In this document: positions 17,374-55,193 of the stretch, in pieces
Numbering within the stretch: the stretch's first letter is position 1
How the letters are laid out: each line of letters opens with the position of its first letter
Source of the DNA: an uncultured Pseudobdellovibrionaceae bacterium
Lineage (GTDB): Bacteria; Bdellovibrionota; FAC87; UBA2466
Assembly: GCA_964519985.1 (NCBI GenBank)
Contig: CAZFMF010000013.1
Span: 7,515 to 71,514 of the forward strand
Direction of reading: 5' to 3'
DNA: 64,000 bases
Translations under genes and position numbers: made by a program
The notes under the pieces: generated by a model
What the model was told of the DNA's origin: nothing
What the model saw: the letters and a program-made list of their open reading frames with translations, nothing else
Databases searched by the model: none

Positions 17374-17410
17374 CTGAAACCATCACTTGAACGGGTGTGC
17401 ACTGACGGAG

Positions 17411-17445
17411 GACGGAATACGTCCTTCGGGGTGACGTAATACGTC
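17411..17445. promoter_or_regulatory. two related palindromic 13-mers (GACGGAATACGTC / GACGTAATACGTC) 22 bp apart; candidate enhancer (bEBP) sites
   Basis: Sites at 17411-17423 and 17433-17445, enclosed by a longer imperfect inverted repeat (17390-17399 / 17449-17459). They lie about 85-120 bp upstream of the sigma-54 promoter at 17530. Confidence 0.4.
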
Positions 17446-17529
17446 GTTCACACCCCGTTTGCTGACCGGTCGTTTGACGACCGCCGCGGATTTTCCACGC
17501 TTTTTCAGCCTTTCCGCATCGAGTGTTCT

Positions 17530-17546
17530 TGGCACCGCCCTTGCTC
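17530..17546 (+). promoter_or_regulatory. sigma-54 (-24/-12) promoter, TGGCAC-N5-TTGCTC
   Basis: TTCTTGGCACCGCCCTTGCTCAA, intergenic, about 60 nt upstream of the S8 protease ATG at 17606. Confidence 0.7.
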
Positions 17547-17605
17547 AATTAGGCGAGACTGGCTGCCCGTCGGGGCGGTTCACCGTGGGTGTTGGGAGTA
17601 CGCGG

Positions 17606-18961
17606 ATGCTCGAGAAGTTGAAGAAGCAGTGGAGCGAGGGGTTTCGGCCCGTATACTGGGCGTCTTTGGGCGCTCTGGCCTTTGGTTCCGTCGTTTTGGC
17701 GAATCAGCCCAAAACCCCCAAATTTCCTTTTCCCGCGACCGCGAAGCAGATGAACGATCTGCAGTACCCCGAGCTGCCGAAAGAATTGAACGACCGCATC
17801 AAGGGCGTGAATGCCGCCCATGCCGCCAAAAAGAATCCCTTGCCGCAGGCCGATTCCGCGCTTTCGCGCGAGTGGGGTCTAGCCAGTATCGGATTTTTCG
17901 ATGTCTTTACGCAAATGGCGCAGCCGCTCAAAGGTCAGGTCGAATCCTGCTCGAAGGCGATCGTGGTCGCCGTGATTGATACCGGCGTGGATTACACGCA
18001 TCCCGAATTGCGCGATAACCTCTGGGTCAATCGCGGTGAGACGGGTTACTGGGCTCCCCCGAAGGAATTGGCCGACAAGGGTTACGCGTGGAACTGCCGC
18101 GACAAAAGCTGCAACGGATTCGACGACGACGGCAATGGCTACGTGGATGATGTCGTGGGTTGGGATTTTGTGCACGACGTACCGCTTCCGTTTGATACCC
18201 ACGGCCACGGAACGCACATCGCCGGCATCATCGGTGGCAGTGCGGCAAATGGAATGGGGACCTCCGGCGTTTGCCCCAACGTTTCCTTGATGGCTTTGAA
18301 GTATTACGACAATGGCGGCGCGGGCTATAACAACCTCGCCAATACCGTGCGCGCGATCGAGTATGCGGTCGCCAATGGCGCACAGATCATCAACTACAGC
18401 GGTGGCGGAGCGGATCCCGCGGCTAGCGAGCGCGTGGCCGTGGCCGAAGCCCAGAAGAAGGGCGTTTTGTTTATTGCCGCCGCCGGTAACGACGGGCGCA
18501 ATAACGATCGCCGGCCGTACTATCCGGCGAGTTACCCGCTCGACAATATCGTCGGCGTGGCTTCGGTAAATAAATACGAACGCCTTTTGCCTTCCAGCAA
18601 CTTTGGAAAAAGCGTCCACGTGGCGGCACCCGGATTGATGATTCTCAGCACGTTACCGGGCGGAAAGTTCGGCACGATGTCGGGCACTTCGCAAGCGACC
18701 GCCTTTGTGACCGGTGCCGCAGCCTTGCTCGCGAGCCAATCGATGGGCGGATTTGATTACCATAAGGTGAAGAACTGGCTGCTCGAAGGCGCCAAGCCGA
18801 TGAAGCTCAATGGCAGCAAACAGCTGCTGAGCGCGGGGCTATTGTCACTGCCCGGAAGTCTTCAAGCGCAACGCACTTTCTTAGCGAAGAATGCAAAGCC
18901 AGTGGCTCCGGAAGTCGCGGTGGCCGTGCCTCAAGCGGCGACGGCGACCCAAACTCGGTAA
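17606..18961 (+). CDS. subtilisin-like serine protease (peptidase S8), exported
   Basis: Catalytic triad motifs VAVIDTGVD (Asp), HGHGTHIAG (His), GTSQATAFVTGAAALL (Ser). Start trimmed to the ATG with a GGGAG Shine-Dalgarno sequence; a hydrophobic segment follows. Confidence 0.9.
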   Translation: MLEKLKKQWSEGFRPVYWASLGALAFGSVVLANQPKTPKFPFPATAKQMNDLQYPELPKELNDRIKGVNAAHAAKKNPLPQADSALSREWGLASIGFFDVFTQMAQPLKGQVESCSKAIVVAVIDTGVDYTHPELRDNLWVNRGETGYWAPPKELADKGYAWNCRDKSCNGFDDDGNGYVDDVVGWDFVHDVPLPFDTHGHGTHIAGIIGGSAANGMGTSGVCPNVSLMALKYYDNGGAGYNNLANTVRAIEYAVANGAQIINYSGGGADPAASERVAVAEAQKKGVLFIAAAGNDGRNNDRRPYYPASYPLDNIVGVASVNKYERLLPSSNFGKSVHVAAPGLMILSTLPGGKFGTMSGTSQATAFVTGAAALLASQSMGGFDYHKVKNWLLEGAKPMKLNGSKQLLSAGLLSLPGSLQAQRTFLAKNAKPVAPEVAVAVPQAATATQTR

Positions 18962-28664: not shown

Positions 28665-29618
28665 TTAGGCTCCCATTCCCAAAACGGATTTTAAGTTGGC
28701 AATTTCTAGTTCCACGCGGGGCAGATCGCGGGAATCGATGAATCGAATTTCCGGATCGGATCGCAACCAGGTGATCTGCCGTTTGAGTAGTCTCCGGGTG
28801 TTCTCGGTGATGAGGGTCACTAGCTGCGCTTGCGTCACTTCCTGCTTTAAGTGCTTGCCGGTTTCGGCGTAACCGATACTGCCCAAGGCCTTGGCTTTGG
28901 GGTGTCGGGCGCTGAGCGTTTTGACCCCTTCGACCAGACCATCGCGCAACATGCTTTGCGTCCGTTGGGCGATGTTTTCGGCGAGCACTTTACGCGAAAC
29001 CGCCATCGCGTACTTCACCCAGATCCAATCGGTCCCCATTCCGCCGGCGGCCTTCAAGTCGCTGGGTTTTTTTCCGCCGCGGGCGAGCGCGACGGCCCGA
29101 ATCAGGCGGTAGGAGTCATTGGCGTGGACCGCGGCCGCCGCTTTGGGATCGAGTTTTTCCAGGGCGGCGTGCAGGGCCGCGGAGTCGAGCGCGTCCTCGC
29201 GGGTAAACTCCTCGGTGATGGCGTCGAGATCGGAATCGTCATAACCGCCGGTCGGGTACATCCCATTCTGCAAGGCCCGCAAGTAAAAGTAGCTGCCCCC
29301 GACCAGAATCGGCAGCTTGCCCCGAGCCGCAATCGATTCGATGGCGGTCTGGGCTTCGCGGACAAAATCATGGGCATTAAACGCTTGGTCCGGTTCTAAA
29401 AGGTCGAGCAAGTGGTGGGGGACCCGTTGGCGCTGGTCGGCGGTCGGCTTGCTGGTTCCGATGTCGAATCCCTTGTACACCGTCGTCGAATCCACGCAGA
29501 CGATCTCACCGCCGAGCTTTTCGGCGACGGAAAGCGCGAACGCAGTTTTTCCGGATGCGGTAGGACCCAGGATCGCCAAACAGAGTTTTCTCGCCGCCAT
29601 TGCTTCAGATCCGTTCAA
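28665..29618 (-). CDS. miaA: tRNA dimethylallyltransferase
   Basis: AILGPTASGKTAFAL...VDSTTVYKGFDIGTSKP...VPHHLLD. Abuts the yicC start. Confidence 0.9.
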   Translation of the reverse strand: MNGSEAMAARKLCLAILGPTASGKTAFALSVAEKLGGEIVCVDSTTVYKGFDIGTSKPTADQRQRVPHHLLDLLEPDQAFNAHDFVREAQTAIESIAARGKLPILVGGSYFYLRALQNGMYPTGGYDDSDLDAITEEFTREDALDSAALHAALEKLDPKAAAAVHANDSYRLIRAVALARGGKKPSDLKAAGGMGTDWIWVKYAMAVSRKVLAENIAQRTQSMLRDGLVEGVKTLSARHPKAKALGSIGYAETGKHLKQEVTQAQLVTLITENTRRLLKRQITWLRSDPEIRFIDSRDLPRVELEIANLKSVLGMGA

Positions 29619-31380
29619 AGTGTTTTTCGATTTCTTTGTAACCCAGTCGGAAAACGACCGGCCTTCCGTGTGGGCAGGTCCAGCCTAATTCCAAAGCATC
29701 GATGTTTTCCAAAAGTGATTCCGCTTCAAAATCGGAAAGCGTTTGCCCCGCGCGCACCACGGAATGGCAGGCAATGGTAGCCAGCACGGGGGTGAGCAGG
29801 CGCTGGGTGACTTCGGTATCGGTCTCCATTTGGGAGGCGACCGCGCGCAGCGTTTCCAAAACCATTTTCTCGGCCCGCGCTTCTTCCACGAGTTCCGGAA
29901 TGGCTTTGAGCGCCCAATCCCCGTCGCCGAAGGCTTCAAGCTCGAATCCCAGGGAGAGCAACTTTTCTGCCGTTTCCTCTAGCACTCCCGCGAGTTCGGG
30001 CTCTAGCCGCAAAATTTTTGGAATCAAAAGCCGCTGGGAACCCATTTTCCCTTCGCCATGCTTGCGGCGCAATTCTTCGTAGCGAAATTTCTCGTGCAGC
30101 GCGTGTTGGTCGATCAGCAACAAGCCTTCGGCGTCTTCGCAAAGGAGGTAAGCCGCCCTGATTTGGCCAAGGTACTTCCAGCGCCGTTCGGGCGCGGCGG
30201 TATAGGTCGCGGTCGGGGCCGAGAAAGTCGGGGCGACCGTATTGAAGTCGGGTTGGGTATAGGTCACGGGACGCGGCGGGGGCGGTTCCCAGCGCGGCAG
30301 GGGCGGGGCGGTGACCGACGCGGTCGTGAGTTGGGCGGGGGGTTCCGACACCTGAAAGGCCCGAATCGTGGGCTGTTGGGCAATGGCTTTGCGAATGGCG
30401 GAGATCAACCACCCGTAAAGCGTCTCCTGCTTCAGGCAGCGCACTTCGGTTTTTTGCGGGTGCACGTTCACGTCCACCCAATCCTTACGAATGTCGAGAT
30501 AGACGACGCCGGACGGATCGTGGTGCGGTCCAAGCGATCCCAGGTAGGCCTGGCGGATGGCGGAAAGCAAGCCGCGGTTACGTACCGGACGTCCGTTGAC
30601 GAAGAGCAGAAGTTCGCCCCGATCCTGGGTCACATCGCCGGGGAGCAGGAAGGCATCGAGCGCGAGATCGTCGGCCTGCTCGCGGACGCGCAAAGGTTTC
30701 CAATCCCAGGAAAAGCATTCCGCCACCCGCGATTCGCGCGTGTTGCCGACGTAGGAATTCACCAGGCGGCCCTGATGGTGGAGGGCAAACTCCGCTTGCG
30801 GGTTGCCCACCGCGAGTTCTTTCACCACGCGAGCGCAGTGGGAGAATTCCGTCCCCGCCGAGCGCAAGAATTTCTTTCGGGCGGGGAGTTGGGCGAAAAG
30901 TCCCCGAACACTCACCGTGGTTCCGGTGGCGGCGCCCATCGGTCGCGGTTCGCCCTGGGACAAGCCATAGTGCACACTCAAGCCCAAGGCGTTTGGGAAA
31001 GCCGCCGGCCGGCTTTTGACGTCCACTTCCGCGACGGAGGCGATACTGGCGAGGGCCTCGCCCCGAAAGCCATAGGTCCCGATCGATTCCAGGTCTTCGC
31101 TGGTCGCGAGTTTGCTCGTGGCGTGGCGTTCCAGGCTCAATGCCAGATCTTCGGGATGAATGCCTCTTCCGTCGTCGATGACCGTAATCTCTGTCATCCC
31201 GCCCTCTTTCAAATGAACGGTAATCCGGCGACTTCCGGCATCGAGGCTGTTTTCAATCAATTCCTTCAGGGCGCTCGCGGGCCGCTCGACCACCTCGCCG
31301 GCGGCGATTTGGTTCACGAGGAGGTCGGGGATGCGACTGACTCGGGCAAGTGTGTTTTCTTCGCGGTAGGTTGACGCCAT
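29605..31380 (-). CDS. mutL: DNA mismatch repair protein MutL
   Basis: LVNQIAAGEVVERPASALKELIENSLDAG, GFRGEAL, and C-terminal dimerisation region. ATG 31380 preferred over the upstream TTG at 31416. Confidence 0.9.
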   Translation of the reverse strand: MASTYREENTLARVSRIPDLLVNQIAAGEVVERPASALKELIENSLDAGSRRITVHLKEGGMTEITVIDDGRGIHPEDLALSLERHATSKLATSEDLESIGTYGFRGEALASIASVAEVDVKSRPAAFPNALGLSVHYGLSQGEPRPMGAATGTTVSVRGLFAQLPARKKFLRSAGTEFSHCARVVKELAVGNPQAEFALHHQGRLVNSYVGNTRESRVAECFSWDWKPLRVREQADDLALDAFLLPGDVTQDRGELLLFVNGRPVRNRGLLSAIRQAYLGSLGPHHDPSGVVYLDIRKDWVDVNVHPQKTEVRCLKQETLYGWLISAIRKAIAQQPTIRAFQVSEPPAQLTTASVTAPPLPRWEPPPPRPVTYTQPDFNTVAPTFSAPTATYTAAPERRWKYLGQIRAAYLLCEDAEGLLLIDQHALHEKFRYEELRRKHGEGKMGSQRLLIPKILRLEPELAGVLEETAEKLLSLGFELEAFGDGDWALKAIPELVEEARAEKMVLETLRAVASQMETDTEVTQRLLTPVLATIACHSVVRAGQTLSDFEAESLLENIDALELGWTCPHGRPVVFRLGYKEIEKHFERI

Positions 31381-31554
31381 CGTATCCTGGTTCAAAAAGT
31401 TCTTAACGATAATCAATCCGTCCCGGGCCCGTCAAACTCGGCCCTGCGCGTAAGATCAGAGCCTTGACGTCGTCGCACTCGATCTCGGCTAGCGATTCGT
31501 TTGGTGAGGAGTGATTTTCAAAACGCGTTCAAAGCCGTGCCTTGAGTGTCGTGG

Positions 31555-31673
31555 CTGTCCAAAGTTTCGACAGTCCCTGTCTACGAGTTAGACAGAGGGG
31601 TAAAGGGTTGAAACGTTAGTGATTGCGGCGACGGGAGTGGATCGCTCTTAAACACTGTCCAACTCTTGGACAG
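31555..31673. promoter_or_regulatory. three CTGTC-N9-GACAG palindromes; candidate upstream activator sites for a sigma-54 enhancer-binding protein
   Basis: Sites at 31555-31573 (CTGTCcaaagtttcGACAG), 31577-31595 (CTGTCtacgagttaGACAG) and 31655-31673 (CTGTCcaactcttgGACAG). The first two are 22 bp apart. All lie 80-200 bp upstream of the promoter at 31751, with an AT-rich stretch (about 31695-31735) between. Confidence 0.5.
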
Positions 31674-31750
31674 GAGTGCCGCTCCACGCAAGTCAAGAAT
31701 TTCCTATTAAATAGTCAAAATGATTGAGGTAGTTGGATTGCCTAAATCTT

Positions 31751-31767
31751 TGGCACTGCCCTTGCTC
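31751..31767 (+). promoter_or_regulatory. sigma-54 (-24/-12) promoter, TGGCAC-N5-TTGCTC, with no downstream ORF
   Basis: TCTTTGGCACTGCCCTTGCTCTA. It differs from the 17530 promoter core at only one position. Confidence 0.7.
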
Positions 31768-31776
31768 TAGGGAATC

Positions 31777-32012
31777 CCGCCGCGCGAGGTGAGAGTCGCC
31801 GGCAATGCTGTCCTAACCGAGGGGGCCGCCCATATCAGGGCCTGCCGACCTCGAAACCAGGCTTACAATCAGGGTAAAGCTCGAAATAGAGCGTTTCAAT
31901 GGGGATAAGGGGGCTTGCTGCCACCCTGTCATTGCGACCGAAGGGAAGCAATCTCGCATCGCATAGCGATGCGGGTTTGCTTCGGCCTGCGGCCTCGCAA
32001 TGACGGGGTGGC
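31777..32012 (+). ncRNA. candidate sigma-54-dependent small RNA (about 0.24 kb, ends in a 93-nt hairpin)
   Basis: The ORF track shows no plus-strand ORF of 60 aa or more here. My hand scan found only short ORFs without a properly spaced Shine-Dalgarno sequence. The extent is inferred from the promoter position (start 12 nt after the -12 GC) and the end of the hairpin. I did not recognise tmRNA, RNase P, SRP or 6S features. Confidence 0.35.
31920..32012. other. long imperfect GC-rich hairpin
   Basis: Outer 18-bp stem GCCACCCTGTCATTGCGA / TCGCAATGACGGGGTGGC (one G-T pair), inner GAAGCAA/TTGCTTC, apical CGCATCGC-ATA-GCGATGCG. No U-tract on either strand. It lies just past the stop (32021) of the convergent lipoprotein gene. 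Confidence 0.7.
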
Positions 32013-32020
32013 GGCCGATG

Positions 32021-32566
32021 TTATTCCACGCGCCGTCGTCGTACCGGCACTCCGCCGCCGGAGTGGGAGGACGGGATGCGGGTGAACGCCCGTTTCACTT
32101 CCTTTCCGTCTTCTAAGGCCGGCAAGGCTTCGAAGTCGGATTCCTGGAGATCCTCCGGGGTGCCGTTATTCACGGGTTGGGTGACGGGCGAATTGGCCGC
32201 CACTTGATTGACTGGTCCACTCACAACCAAACCGGGATTTTGGAAATTACCCCTCGCGCCGATCGTCGAGAGTTGCCCGTTGGCATCGCGAAAGGCGCCG
32301 GCCCGCTGAGCCGCTTCCACATCTTCCGGTCGCAAGGGCGAATGCCCAAAGGCATTGGGATTGGTCTGCAAACCGCGATTGAAATTGGCGAGTTCCAGTT
32401 CCCGTTTGAGCTCTTGGTTTTCTTCCAGAAGCTCCTCATCGCGTTCGTTCGCGCCATTGTTGTTATTGTTTTTTTTGTTCCCCGCAATGCGCGGTTTCGG
32501 ACTGGCGCAACTGGCCAGAAAGAATACCGCTACGAATGCAATCAACAACCCGCTGTAACGCTTCAT
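32021..32566 (-). CDS. lipoprotein, unknown function (Asn-run, low complexity)
   Basis: MKRYSGLLIAFVAVFFLASC lipobox and KKNNNNNG run. Confidence 0.65.
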   Translation of the reverse strand: MKRYSGLLIAFVAVFFLASCASPKPRIAGNKKNNNNNGANERDEELLEENQELKRELELANFNRGLQTNPNAFGHSPLRPEDVEAAQRAGAFRDANGQLSTIGARGNFQNPGLVVSGPVNQVAANSPVTQPVNNGTPEDLQESDFEALPALEDGKEVKRAFTRIPSSHSGGGVPVRRRRVE

Positions 32567-46773: not shown

Positions 46774-47604
46774 TTAGAAATAATAACCGAGCGAAACCTG
46801 GTGCCGGTGCTCCGTGGTGAGCGGTCCGGTTGGTATCGTGGTCACAATGGCAGCGTTCAGTTTGGGCGAGAGCCAGCGACTGAGCGAGCCCTGGATGGCA
46901 TTGCCGTAGGGAAGGTACGTAATCGTGGCCGAGGGAAGGTCGCGGCCGAGGCTCGCGCTGACCCGCACGGCGAGGGAATCGGGTAGCGCTCCGCCCGAAA
47001 GCGAACTTACGAAACGGGCGTGATAAATCCCGGCACCCCACGTCTCCGCGACAATCTCCATTTTCGAGAAATCGGTCAAAACGTCATAACCCAATTGCAA
47101 GCGGGGGGCGTTCTTCGCCTTTGAGAAGCTCACCGTCGTGTTTTTCACCTGGTTCATTTGCTGCTGCACGCGCTGCACCTGGCGTTTCAAATGGGCGGGC
47201 ACGTTCCGGGGAGTAAAGGCATTGCGGATCATCGCATCGATGCGCGTGCGCAAGACGCCGGAGGCGAATTGCTTGCGCATATCACTCTCACCAATCACCG
47301 TCAGCGCACCCATTTGTTGGAATTCGACCCCGTTTTGATCCAGGGGGGAGAAGCGCGTCTGCATTTCGTGGTAGCGCCAGGTGTCGGCATAACTGCGGGC
47401 CAGACTGCCATCGGTCGAGGAGACATAATTTTGGTAGAGCCAATCTTGAACCGGTGGTTTGGGCAGTTCCATCAGATGCTCGATGTGGCCGTCGGACGCG
47501 GCGGCGATAGCGGCCATTTGGCGGTCGCCTTCGGCGTAGGCGGTGGCCGGCGAAAAGGCGACAAGCCACGCCAGCACGAGTCGCACCCCGCGCGGCGCTG
47601 CCAT
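46774..47604 (-). CDS. outer-membrane-like exported protein (C-terminal ...SLGYYF)
   Basis: Signal peptide MAAPRGVRLVLAWLVAFSPATAYA and a terminal aromatic residue typical of beta-barrel OMPs. The GTG at 47667 is an alternative start. Confidence 0.6.
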   Translation of the reverse strand: MAAPRGVRLVLAWLVAFSPATAYAEGDRQMAAIAAASDGHIEHLMELPKPPVQDWLYQNYVSSTDGSLARSYADTWRYHEMQTRFSPLDQNGVEFQQMGALTVIGESDMRKQFASGVLRTRIDAMIRNAFTPRNVPAHLKRQVQRVQQQMNQVKNTTVSFSKAKNAPRLQLGYDVLTDFSKMEIVAETWGAGIYHARFVSSLSGGALPDSLAVRVSASLGRDLPSATITYLPYGNAIQGSLSRWLSPKLNAAIVTTIPTGPLTTEHRHQVSLGYYF

Positions 47605-47702
47605 GGCCTTGTTCCAACTCCCAACCACGAGTCTCACGTCTTCATCCCTCAAACCGGCCCGCGGCACCTTGGCCCGCGAGAGCCTGTCTAGCGCCTAGGC
47701 GG

Positions 47703-47719
47703 GAGCAAGACGAATGCCA
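47703..47719 (-). promoter_or_regulatory. sigma-54 (-24/-12) promoter, TGGCAT-N5-TTGCTC
   Basis: Minus strand reads CACCTGGCATTCGTCTTGCTCCC, intergenic. The 8-bp palindromes GATGCATC (47735-47742) and CGCATGCG (47747-47754) lie just upstream. Confidence 0.7.
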
Positions 47720-47827
47720 GGTGAAGACCGGACGGATGCATCGTTCGCATGCGTGATTTTCAAAGCGGGAGGTGAAAACAGGGTGTCGAGTTCTTAGGCA
47801 GGGCCGTAAATGGGCCGCGCAGAGACT

Positions 47828-55176: not shown

Positions 55177-55193
55177 TGGCACACCGCTTGCTC
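55177..55193 (+). promoter_or_regulatory. sigma-54 (-24/-12) promoter, TGGCAC-N5-TTGCTC
   Basis: CGCGTGGCACACCGCTTGCTCTT, intergenic, about 58 nt upstream of ATG 55249. Confidence 0.7.

Follow-up and report, generated by a model that had tools for sequence, protein, structure and literature searches.

What is a sigma-54 promoter for when every gene downstream of it, for more than 4 kb, is encoded on the opposite strand? This question is raised by the 640-bp intergenic region that extends from the ATG of mutL (31380) to the stop codon of a 181-aa lipoprotein open reading frame (ORF) in a 64,000-nucleotide stretch of DNA from an uncultured Pseudobdellovibrionaceae bacterium; this whole stretch is called the window here, and coordinates given without a locus name refer to it. 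Because the downstream genes all lie on the minus strand, the plus-strand promoter at 31751 has no gene to serve. A first-pass annotation of the window had delimited this intergenic region, the size of which is borne out by the coordinates, and had proposed that the promoter is an orphan of the enhancer-dependent type driving a small RNA (sRNA) devoid of ORFs. The Rfam, ORF and conservation checks reported below lend support to this proposal, and because the promoter design matches that of glmY and glmZ, it is very likely that the locus represents an enhancer-dependent sRNA gene. A more far-reaching account, in which the segment 31555-32015 would form a gene for a non-coding RNA of ~240 nt serving as a decoy for a GGA-binding protein, is tentative, and as a whole it commands somewhat less than even confidence.

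A conserved promoter module with three activator sites

The palindrome CTGTC-N9-GACAG was said to occur three times upstream of the promoter, and the matches at 31555, 31577 and 31655 indeed proved to be the only ones in the 64 kb, where 0.02 would be expected. The exact promoter element had likewise been placed correctly at 31751, with TGGCAC-N5-TTGC present at 31751-31765 as one of three matches in the window, compared with 0.16 expected (for coordinates of all features, see Table 1). From the usual distance between the -12 element and +1, transcription is predicted to start near 31776-31778.

Is this arrangement maintained by selection, or is it a peculiarity of one genome? Related loci were gathered via MutL homologues and the contigs encoding them, and the same protein places the window in Bdellovibrionota, among metagenome-assembled genomes (MAGs) labelled Pseudobdellovibrionaceae (60-69% identity). 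The module of sites and promoter is present in nine relatives (L001-L005, L172, L176, which equals L177, L179, and L171 combined with L306), the MutL proteins of which are 60-86% identical to that of the window; L171 and L306 overlap by 30 nt and together constitute the locus of the closest relative (MutL 86% identical), hereafter R86. In the ten-sequence alignment of the window and these nine relatives (A4), the TGTC-N9-GAC of site 1 is invariant and its distance to the promoter is constant within +/-3 bp; site 2 is kept in a more degenerate form, spaced 21-22 bp from site 1; and the GACAG of site 3 is retained in nine of the ten loci, with a gap to TGGCAC of 74-77 bp in the eight loci measured. 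Counted from the promoter GG, the three sites of the window stand at -196, -174 and -96, and these distances are held in the nine related loci: each of them has the TGTC of site 1 at 194-199 bp, and site 3 at 95-96 bp, upstream of the GG, while the flanks diverge. The GG and GC elements of the promoter and the 10-base spacing between them are invariant in all ten loci, with the neighbouring bases varying, and the CTCTAG that follows the promoter is also kept in the nine relatives. Besides the half-sites and the promoter (TGG-A...TGCT-TA), the invariant columns comprise a GC..TCAA block after site 3 and the TAA of a TAA(GTAnTTGAA) block with conserved flanks in the AT-rich spacer; the sequence between them varies. 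The first of these two blocks, GTGCC-N7-GCAAGTCAAG, resembles by eye the WATCAR half of the IHF consensus given in PMC3045617, and may be an IHF-type or other architectural site. The expectation that motif and hairpin would be retained in close relatives was thus borne out, given that the sites, the promoter and the terminal hairpin described below are found at fixed spacing in the nine related loci.

The palindrome in its shorter form, TGTC-N9-GACA, has a background frequency of one per 57 kb (in 1.4 Mb of generic MutL loci). A search of 185,579 species genomes with the combined pattern of site 1, site 3 and promoter, by contrast, gave matches in no more than four contigs, all of them known members and none a chance match, and because of this the arrangement of sites and promoter is specific and restricted to one clade.

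A non-coding transcript displaying G-rich motifs

Downstream of the predicted start, the first 140 nt are 90% identical (129/143) between the window and R86, as against 78% for the first 900 nt of mutL, 59% for the AT-rich spacer and 56% for the terminal hairpin; the adjoining lipoprotein is 49% identical at the protein level. Does this conserved stretch encode a peptide? Three indels of 1-3 nt separate the two sequences and break every reading frame, because of which the only ORF that the window shares with R86, a GTG frame of 39 codons at +13, shifts out of frame after 12 codons. Neither was an ORF common to non-sister members found across the family, so that the annotated lack of a coding frame stands and a small-ORF reading was rejected on the frameshifts together with the lack of a shared ORF. 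The RNA class had been described as unrecognised, and in agreement with this, Rfam returned nothing at gathering score in the window or ten relatives, and chance-level matches only at E <= 10 in 31400-32200. The sole nhmmer match to the 5' domain of the window is R86, and because of this the RNA family is undetectable by primary sequence alone. The window, R86, L001, L004 and L179 have a 5' extension ahead of the conserved core; L003, L172, L005 and L176 lack this extension.

What the members have in common is therefore an order of elements rather than a sequence. Manual segmentation reveals the same succession, m1-HP1-m2-HP2, in nine members while the primary sequence drifts: a single-stranded AAUCAGGGUAA-like motif, a short hairpin, a single-stranded GGGGA stretch and a long GC-rich terminal hairpin. 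HP1 has seven different stem sequences in nine members, and its loop carries GGGG or CGGG in four of them; the HP2 stem measures 8-44 bp across members, with GGGG or GGGGA in the loop in 7/9. Across the nine RNAs, GGGGA occurs 19 times where 6.3 occurrences are expected, a count reached in 0 of 1000 dinucleotide shuffles; its complement, TCCCC, does not occur at all, and TCAGGG is enriched as well (z = 6.4). The G-rich motifs (GGGGA, GGGA, CAGGG) have a mean probability of being unpaired of 0.54, compared with 0.25 for other Gs, and many of them sit in hairpin loops. Strand bias and loop placement hence speak for an RNA of the plus strand on which G-rich motifs are displayed.

The existence of an extended hairpin without a U-tract at the end of this RNA was confirmed, its limits being redrawn to the 99 nt of HP2 in Table 1; no U-tract was found on either side of it. 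HP2 ends 5 nt short of the convergent lipoprotein stop codon, a distance of 3-6 nt in four members, and is probably a terminator shared by the RNA gene and the lipoprotein gene. In the homologous hairpin of R86 the outer stem (GCCGCCAC/GUGGCGGC) is kept around a different, shorter interior with GGGGA motifs, and the inner ~85 nt of the window hairpin (31925-32008) have no counterpart there (L306); the near-perfect palindrome hence looks like a recent expansion or insertion. An origin of HP2 from a repeat or mobile element was considered and rejected, no second copy being present in the window or in any related locus.

The activator site elsewhere in the phylum

If CTGTC-N9-GACAG is an activator site, it might be expected to accompany sigma-54 promoters of a more ordinary kind. 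A scan for one such palindrome 60-90 bp upstream of TGGCAY-N5-KTGCT yielded, among the 80 matches listed, 23 from Bdellovibrionota (Bdellovibrionia, Bacteriovoracia and Oligoflexia). Given the make-up of the collection, this is a strong excess for so small a phylum, by estimate rather than by computation. In at least 20 of these 23 listed matches (loci L184-L261), the promoter is followed, at a distance of 10-85 nt, by the start of an ORF whose product has a signal peptide or lipobox, and the Pfam assignments among the listed matches include S8 subtilases (L236 and L243), Endonuclease_NS (L247), PEP-CTERM (L241) and a sugar transferase (L207). Because site and sigma-54 promoter directly precede genes for exported proteins, CTGTC-N9-GACAG behaves as a working enhancer for an exported-protein regulon across the phylum, and the whole looks like a phylum-wide regulon, governed by a bacterial enhancer-binding protein (bEBP), of secreted and possibly predatory proteins. 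The triple-site, gene-less version in the window is the exception among these exported-protein promoters. No activator gene was found beside the loci carrying the site. It is conceivable that a single phylum-wide sigma-54 activator drives secreted hydrolases (S8 proteases, nuclease) and other exported proteins and, in one Pseudobdellovibrionaceae clade, also a G-rich decoy RNA that titrates CsrA, but this composite picture, taken in its entirety, is distinctly unlikely to be correct.

Two further loci deserve mention in this context. At 47718 (minus strand; region 47700-47800), the window contains a sigma-54-like promoter, CTGGCATTCGTCTTGCT, and, 66 bp upstream of it, a copy of the palindrome with two mismatches, CTGCCTAAGAACTCGACAC; the product of the ORF that follows (46774-47604, minus strand) begins with a signal peptide, MAAPRGVRLVLAWLVAFSPATAYA, and this ORF may belong to the same regulon as one of its ordinary genes. 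In the Bacteriovoracaceae MAG contig CAZCBS010000049.1 (L260:2193-2313, minus strand), CTGTC-N9-GACAG and two degenerate copies of it are followed by TGGCAT-N5-GTTGCT, with no ORF start within 200 nt, which makes this a second 'orphan' promoter of the same type. The ~130 nt downstream of it contain a hairpin of 20 bp, the 20-nt loop of which is C-rich (CACCCCCUACCCCCCAAUCCCC), and after it UUUGUCCCCCAAAAAUCUC (-46 kcal/mol). This hairpin RNA, for which Rfam has no match, may be another sRNA of the regulon, and it is rich in C whereas the window RNA is rich in G.

Other sigma-54-like elements of the window appear in different company. The promoter core was said to be almost identical to that of an S8 protease gene, and the promoter at 17530, which precedes a Peptidase_S8 gene (17600-18961, plus strand), does differ from the one at 31751 by a single base. 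The region upstream of it (17400-17545) contains other inverted repeats, GGACG-N5-CGTCC and GACG-TAATA-CGTC, and because these differ, the S8 gene promoter is probably served by a different activator. Further sigma-54-like -24/-12 matches occur at 55177 (plus strand), 3715 (minus strand) and 3000 (plus strand); no TGTC-N9-GACA palindrome was found within 260 bp of any of the three, and the ORFs after 55177 are without Pfam match.

Genomic setting

Beyond the lipoprotein gene follow genes for an FHA-GGDEF protein, PGI and an acyl-CoA dehydrogenase, all on the minus strand. The lipoprotein gene adjoins the module, in convergent orientation, in every module-bearing locus, and where an EamA gene is inserted beside mutL (L004, L005 and L179), the module remains with the lipoprotein gene. 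In relatives with MutL identities of 52-53%, synteny is otherwise identical, and both the lipoprotein gene and the module are missing; in these relatives (L307:5853-5924 and L308:5944-6000), the FHA-GGDEF gene stands directly beside mutL. Because both features are missing from these syntenic distant relatives, lipoprotein gene and RNA module look like a cassette that was inserted in one subclade. A homologous lipoprotein gene without the module occurs at L178:3608-4924, its 3' end overlapping EamA. In L002 (3724-3964; the same as L180 and L302), about 100 nt of the RNA body are apparently deleted, with the three sites and the promoter intact. Upstream of mutL itself, a sigma-70-like promoter, TTGACG-18-TATCGT, is seen at 31406-31435 (minus strand); its TTGACG box (cgtcaaac on the plus strand) recurs, as judged by eye, ahead of the mutL start, or that of the inserted EamA, in L001, L002, L003 and L005.

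Table 1. Elements of the candidate sRNA locus and the genes flanking it, with their positions in the window
Feature	Position	Strand	Remarks
Activator site 1, CTGTCCAAAGTTTCGACAG	31555-31573		Exact palindrome; TGTC begins 196 bp upstream of promoter GG
Activator site 2, CTGTCTACGAGTTAGACAG	31577-31595		Exact palindrome; 22 bp from site 1
Activator site 3, CTGTCCAACTCTTGGACAG	31655-31673		Exact palindrome; 96 bp upstream of promoter GG
Conserved block GTGCC-N7-GCAAGTCAAG	31676-31697		Directly after site 3; conserved columns in A4
AT-rich spacer	31698-31750		Holds conserved TAA(GTAnTTGAA) block, 31708-31721
Sigma-54 promoter TGGCAC-TGCCC-TTGCTC (-24/-12)	31751-31767	+	TGG-A..N..TGCT-TA invariant in 10 loci
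Variable 5' extension of predicted RNA	31777-31866	+	Core begins at +92 in window, +6 to +9 in four relatives
Core motif m1, AAUCAGGGUAAA	31867-31878	+	Predicted single-stranded; same relative position in 9 members
Hairpin HP1, GCUC-GAAAUA-GAGC	31879-31892	+	Hairpin at same position in 9/9 members
Core motif m2, GUUUCAAUGGGGAUAAGGGGGCUU	31893-31916	+	Single-stranded, G-rich; GGGGA at 31901-31905
Terminal hairpin HP2	31917-32015	+	99 nt, 44 bp, -78 kcal/mol, z = -10
mutL	29605-31380	-	Assigned by Pfam
181-aa lipoprotein gene	32021-32566	-	Convergent; lipobox LASC; signal peptide in ORF translation

A working model and its alternatives

How might these elements operate together? We envisage that an NtrC-family enhancer-binding protein recognising TGTC-N9-GACA would bind at all three sites (centres near -212, -190 and -112), that the conserved AT-rich spacer would bend the DNA, and that the activator would then open the sigma-54 promoter, such that the RNA is made only when the activator is switched on. 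The RNA would consist of its lineage-specific 5' extension followed by the conserved core of AAUCAGGGUAA, short hairpin, GGGGA stretch and terminal hairpin, the last of which, GC-rich and abutting the convergent lipoprotein stop codon, would probably terminate both transcripts. It would act in trans via its exposed G-rich motifs, most likely as a decoy for a CsrA-type GGA-binding protein, and would thereby connect the regulon of the activator to post-transcriptional control. The recognition of GGA in loops by CsrA makes this protein the obvious candidate, and CsrA homologues are common in Bdellovibrionota, where they have been implicated in predation and have no known regulator (PMC13443453). 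Titration of a protein, CsrA or another, via exposed GGGGA and CAGGG motifs is nonetheless a doubtful if real possibility, for which the case is weak in the window RNA itself.

Several observations weigh against this model. The window RNA contains two GGA triplets in 245 nt (one GGGGA and one GGGA) and that of L001 a single one; classic CsrA sponges carry many more such motifs. A csrA gene was found neither in the window nor in any related locus examined, and a bEBP gene, sought by its GAFTGA and ESELFGH motifs, is likewise missing from the 64-kb window and the adjoining related loci. The transcript had been called highly structured, which holds for the terminal hairpin (z = -10) and fails for the 5' 140 nt, which fold like shuffled sequence (z = -0.55); because folding z-scores are unremarkable except for the window hairpin, this description is no argument for the 5' domain. 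The ~10 sequences amount to five close pairs, and HP1 and HP2 were aligned by eye because the MAFFT core alignment (A3) failed to register the hairpins. Finally, the predicted transcript of L002 must be antisense to the lipoprotein coding sequence, because only 41 nt are available there between the predicted start site and the lipoprotein stop codon.

Could the RNA instead act by base-pairing, with the exposed AAUCAGGGUAA and AAUGGGGAUAAG serving as seeds against C/U-rich mRNA regions or a C-rich sRNA and altering translation or stability? With 11-12 nt, the two single-stranded stretches that are best conserved have a typical seed length, and they lie between hairpins; pairing is moreover the mode of action of most known enhancer-dependent sRNAs, such as Qrr and GlmZ, and the Bacteriovoracaceae hairpin RNA with its C-rich loop suggests that G-rich and C-rich partners might coexist in the phylum. 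The motif, however, is repeated and degenerate, with GGGGA in loops and linkers rather than in a single fixed seed. The 64-kb window has complementary 8-9-mers at about chance level with none outstanding, and no Hfq gene was found in it. A pairing role is considered unlikely. Less probable again is control in cis, whereby transcriptional collision with the lipoprotein gene, or an antisense effect on its 3' end, would be the true function and the sequence of the RNA would matter little. This idea draws on the constant, convergent association of the two features, on the terminal hairpin, which in four members comes within 3-6 nt of the stop codon, on the joint lack of lipoprotein gene and module in distant syntenic relatives, as if they were one cassette, and on L002, where the transcript must overlap the coding sequence and yet sites and promoter are intact. 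It is weakened by the finding that the part of the transcript that does not overlap the gene is the most conserved (90%, versus 49% for the lipoprotein), since interference alone needs no such conservation, by the 44-bp hairpin that separates the two genes in the window, and by the lipoprotein gene of L178, which has no module beside it.

A more radical objection would be that there is no transcription unit at all: the palindromes could bind some other regulator (for instance one acting on mutL or EamA), the promoter match could be fortuitous or vestigial, and the hairpin could simply be the lipoprotein terminator. A terminator hairpin is indeed expected after any gene, and the folding energy of the 5' domain is ordinary. 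We nevertheless consider this highly improbable, given that the GG and GC elements with their 10-base spacing are invariant in ten loci at a fixed distance from the sites, that the module accompanies the lipoprotein gene and not mutL, that the same site and promoter stand 10-85 nt upstream of real genes across the phylum, and that the downstream 140 nt are more conserved than mutL. It is barely conceivable, lastly, that the transcript encodes a microprotein. Short frames do exist (39 codons from the GTG at +13, 34 from an ATG at +123 and 56 from a TTG at +139), but a Shine-Dalgarno-like sequence accompanies one of them only, and that one within the hairpin; the +13 frame is the one that shifts after 12 codons in the 86% relative, and peptide similarity is confined to sister pairs that are near-identical at the DNA level.

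What would follow from an sRNA gene of this kind? The locus provides a concrete candidate in predatory Bdellovibrio-like bacteria, for which very little is known of regulatory RNAs, of the sigma-54 regulon or of the control of CsrA, and CTGTC-N9-GACAG provides a defined motif with which to trace the activator and its regulon. Among the apparent members of this regulon are a nuclease and secreted proteases, all candidates for a role in predation. Should the G-rich motifs bind CsrA, the view of CsrA regulation outside Gammaproteobacteria would change. If the composite picture of a phylum-wide activator that also drives a CsrA decoy is true, the RNA would be the first CsrA sponge RNA in bacteria where the ancestral FliW partner switch is assumed to govern CsrA, and it would link the predatory secretome directly to post-transcriptional control.

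Relationship to known systems

In the literature searched, no description of a TGTC-N9-GACA motif, of a Bdellovibrio sigma-54 regulon or of a CsrA-controlling RNA in the phylum was found. With which known systems, then, can the locus be compared? The closest parallel is offered by glmY and glmZ, where three TGTC-N10-GACA boxes for GlrR lie more than 100 bp upstream of a sigma-54 promoter that produces an sRNA, and IHF sites surround the promoter-proximal GlrR box (PMC3045617). Both systems combine three TGTC...GACA palindromes, AT-rich IHF-like blocks (by eye in our case) and a sigma-54 promoter, with the RNA being a prediction here, and GlmY, too, acts as a protein decoy. Unlike their counterparts in glmY and glmZ, the half-sites of the window are separated by N9 rather than N10, there is no glrK-glrR (qseEGF) beside the locus and no bEBP within the 64 kb, and the host belongs to another phylum and the RNA has a different architecture with different motifs. 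In 31400-32200, the GlmY and GlmZ models (RF00128 and RF00083) matched nothing, whether at gathering score or at E <= 10, and the relatives were likewise without a match. The locus may be an independent example, in a distant phylum, of the glmY-type promoter design of three TGTC palindromes, a bend and a sigma-54 promoter.

As for the RNA itself, repeated GGA-containing motifs in loops and single-stranded linkers, with a terminal hairpin at the end, are reminiscent of CsrB, RsmY and RsmZ. Here, by contrast, the motif is GGGGA or CAGGG instead of A(N)GGA, each RNA carries 1-5 copies of it (two for the window RNA), the promoter is of the sigma-54/bEBP type whereas those RNAs depend on GacA/UvrY, and the Rfam models of the CsrB/Rsm clan match neither the window nor the relatives. 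The CrcZ and CrcY RNAs of Pseudomonas depend on CbrB and RpoN and present repeated short motifs to an RNA-binding protein. They would share with the window RNA the combination of an enhancer-dependent sigma-54 promoter and a protein-sequestering sRNA, as proposed here; CrcZ, in contrast, has A-rich motifs that bind Hfq/Crc, CbrB recognises another site, and the RNAs are unrelated in sequence and in Rfam. The Qrr RNAs of Vibrio, governed by LuxO and sigma-54, also unite an orphan sigma-54 promoter and upstream bEBP sites with a short regulatory RNA (predicted in our case). LuxO sites are of the TTGCA-N3-TGCAA type, unlike the TGTC-N9-GACA of the window, and Qrr RNAs differ further in being ~100 nt long and Hfq-dependent with a conserved 32-nt seed; the Qrr model (RF00378) has no match in the window. 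We read the predicted RNA as a new family within the sigma-54/bEBP-dependent regulatory sRNAs, confined to a single clade of a little-studied predatory phylum.

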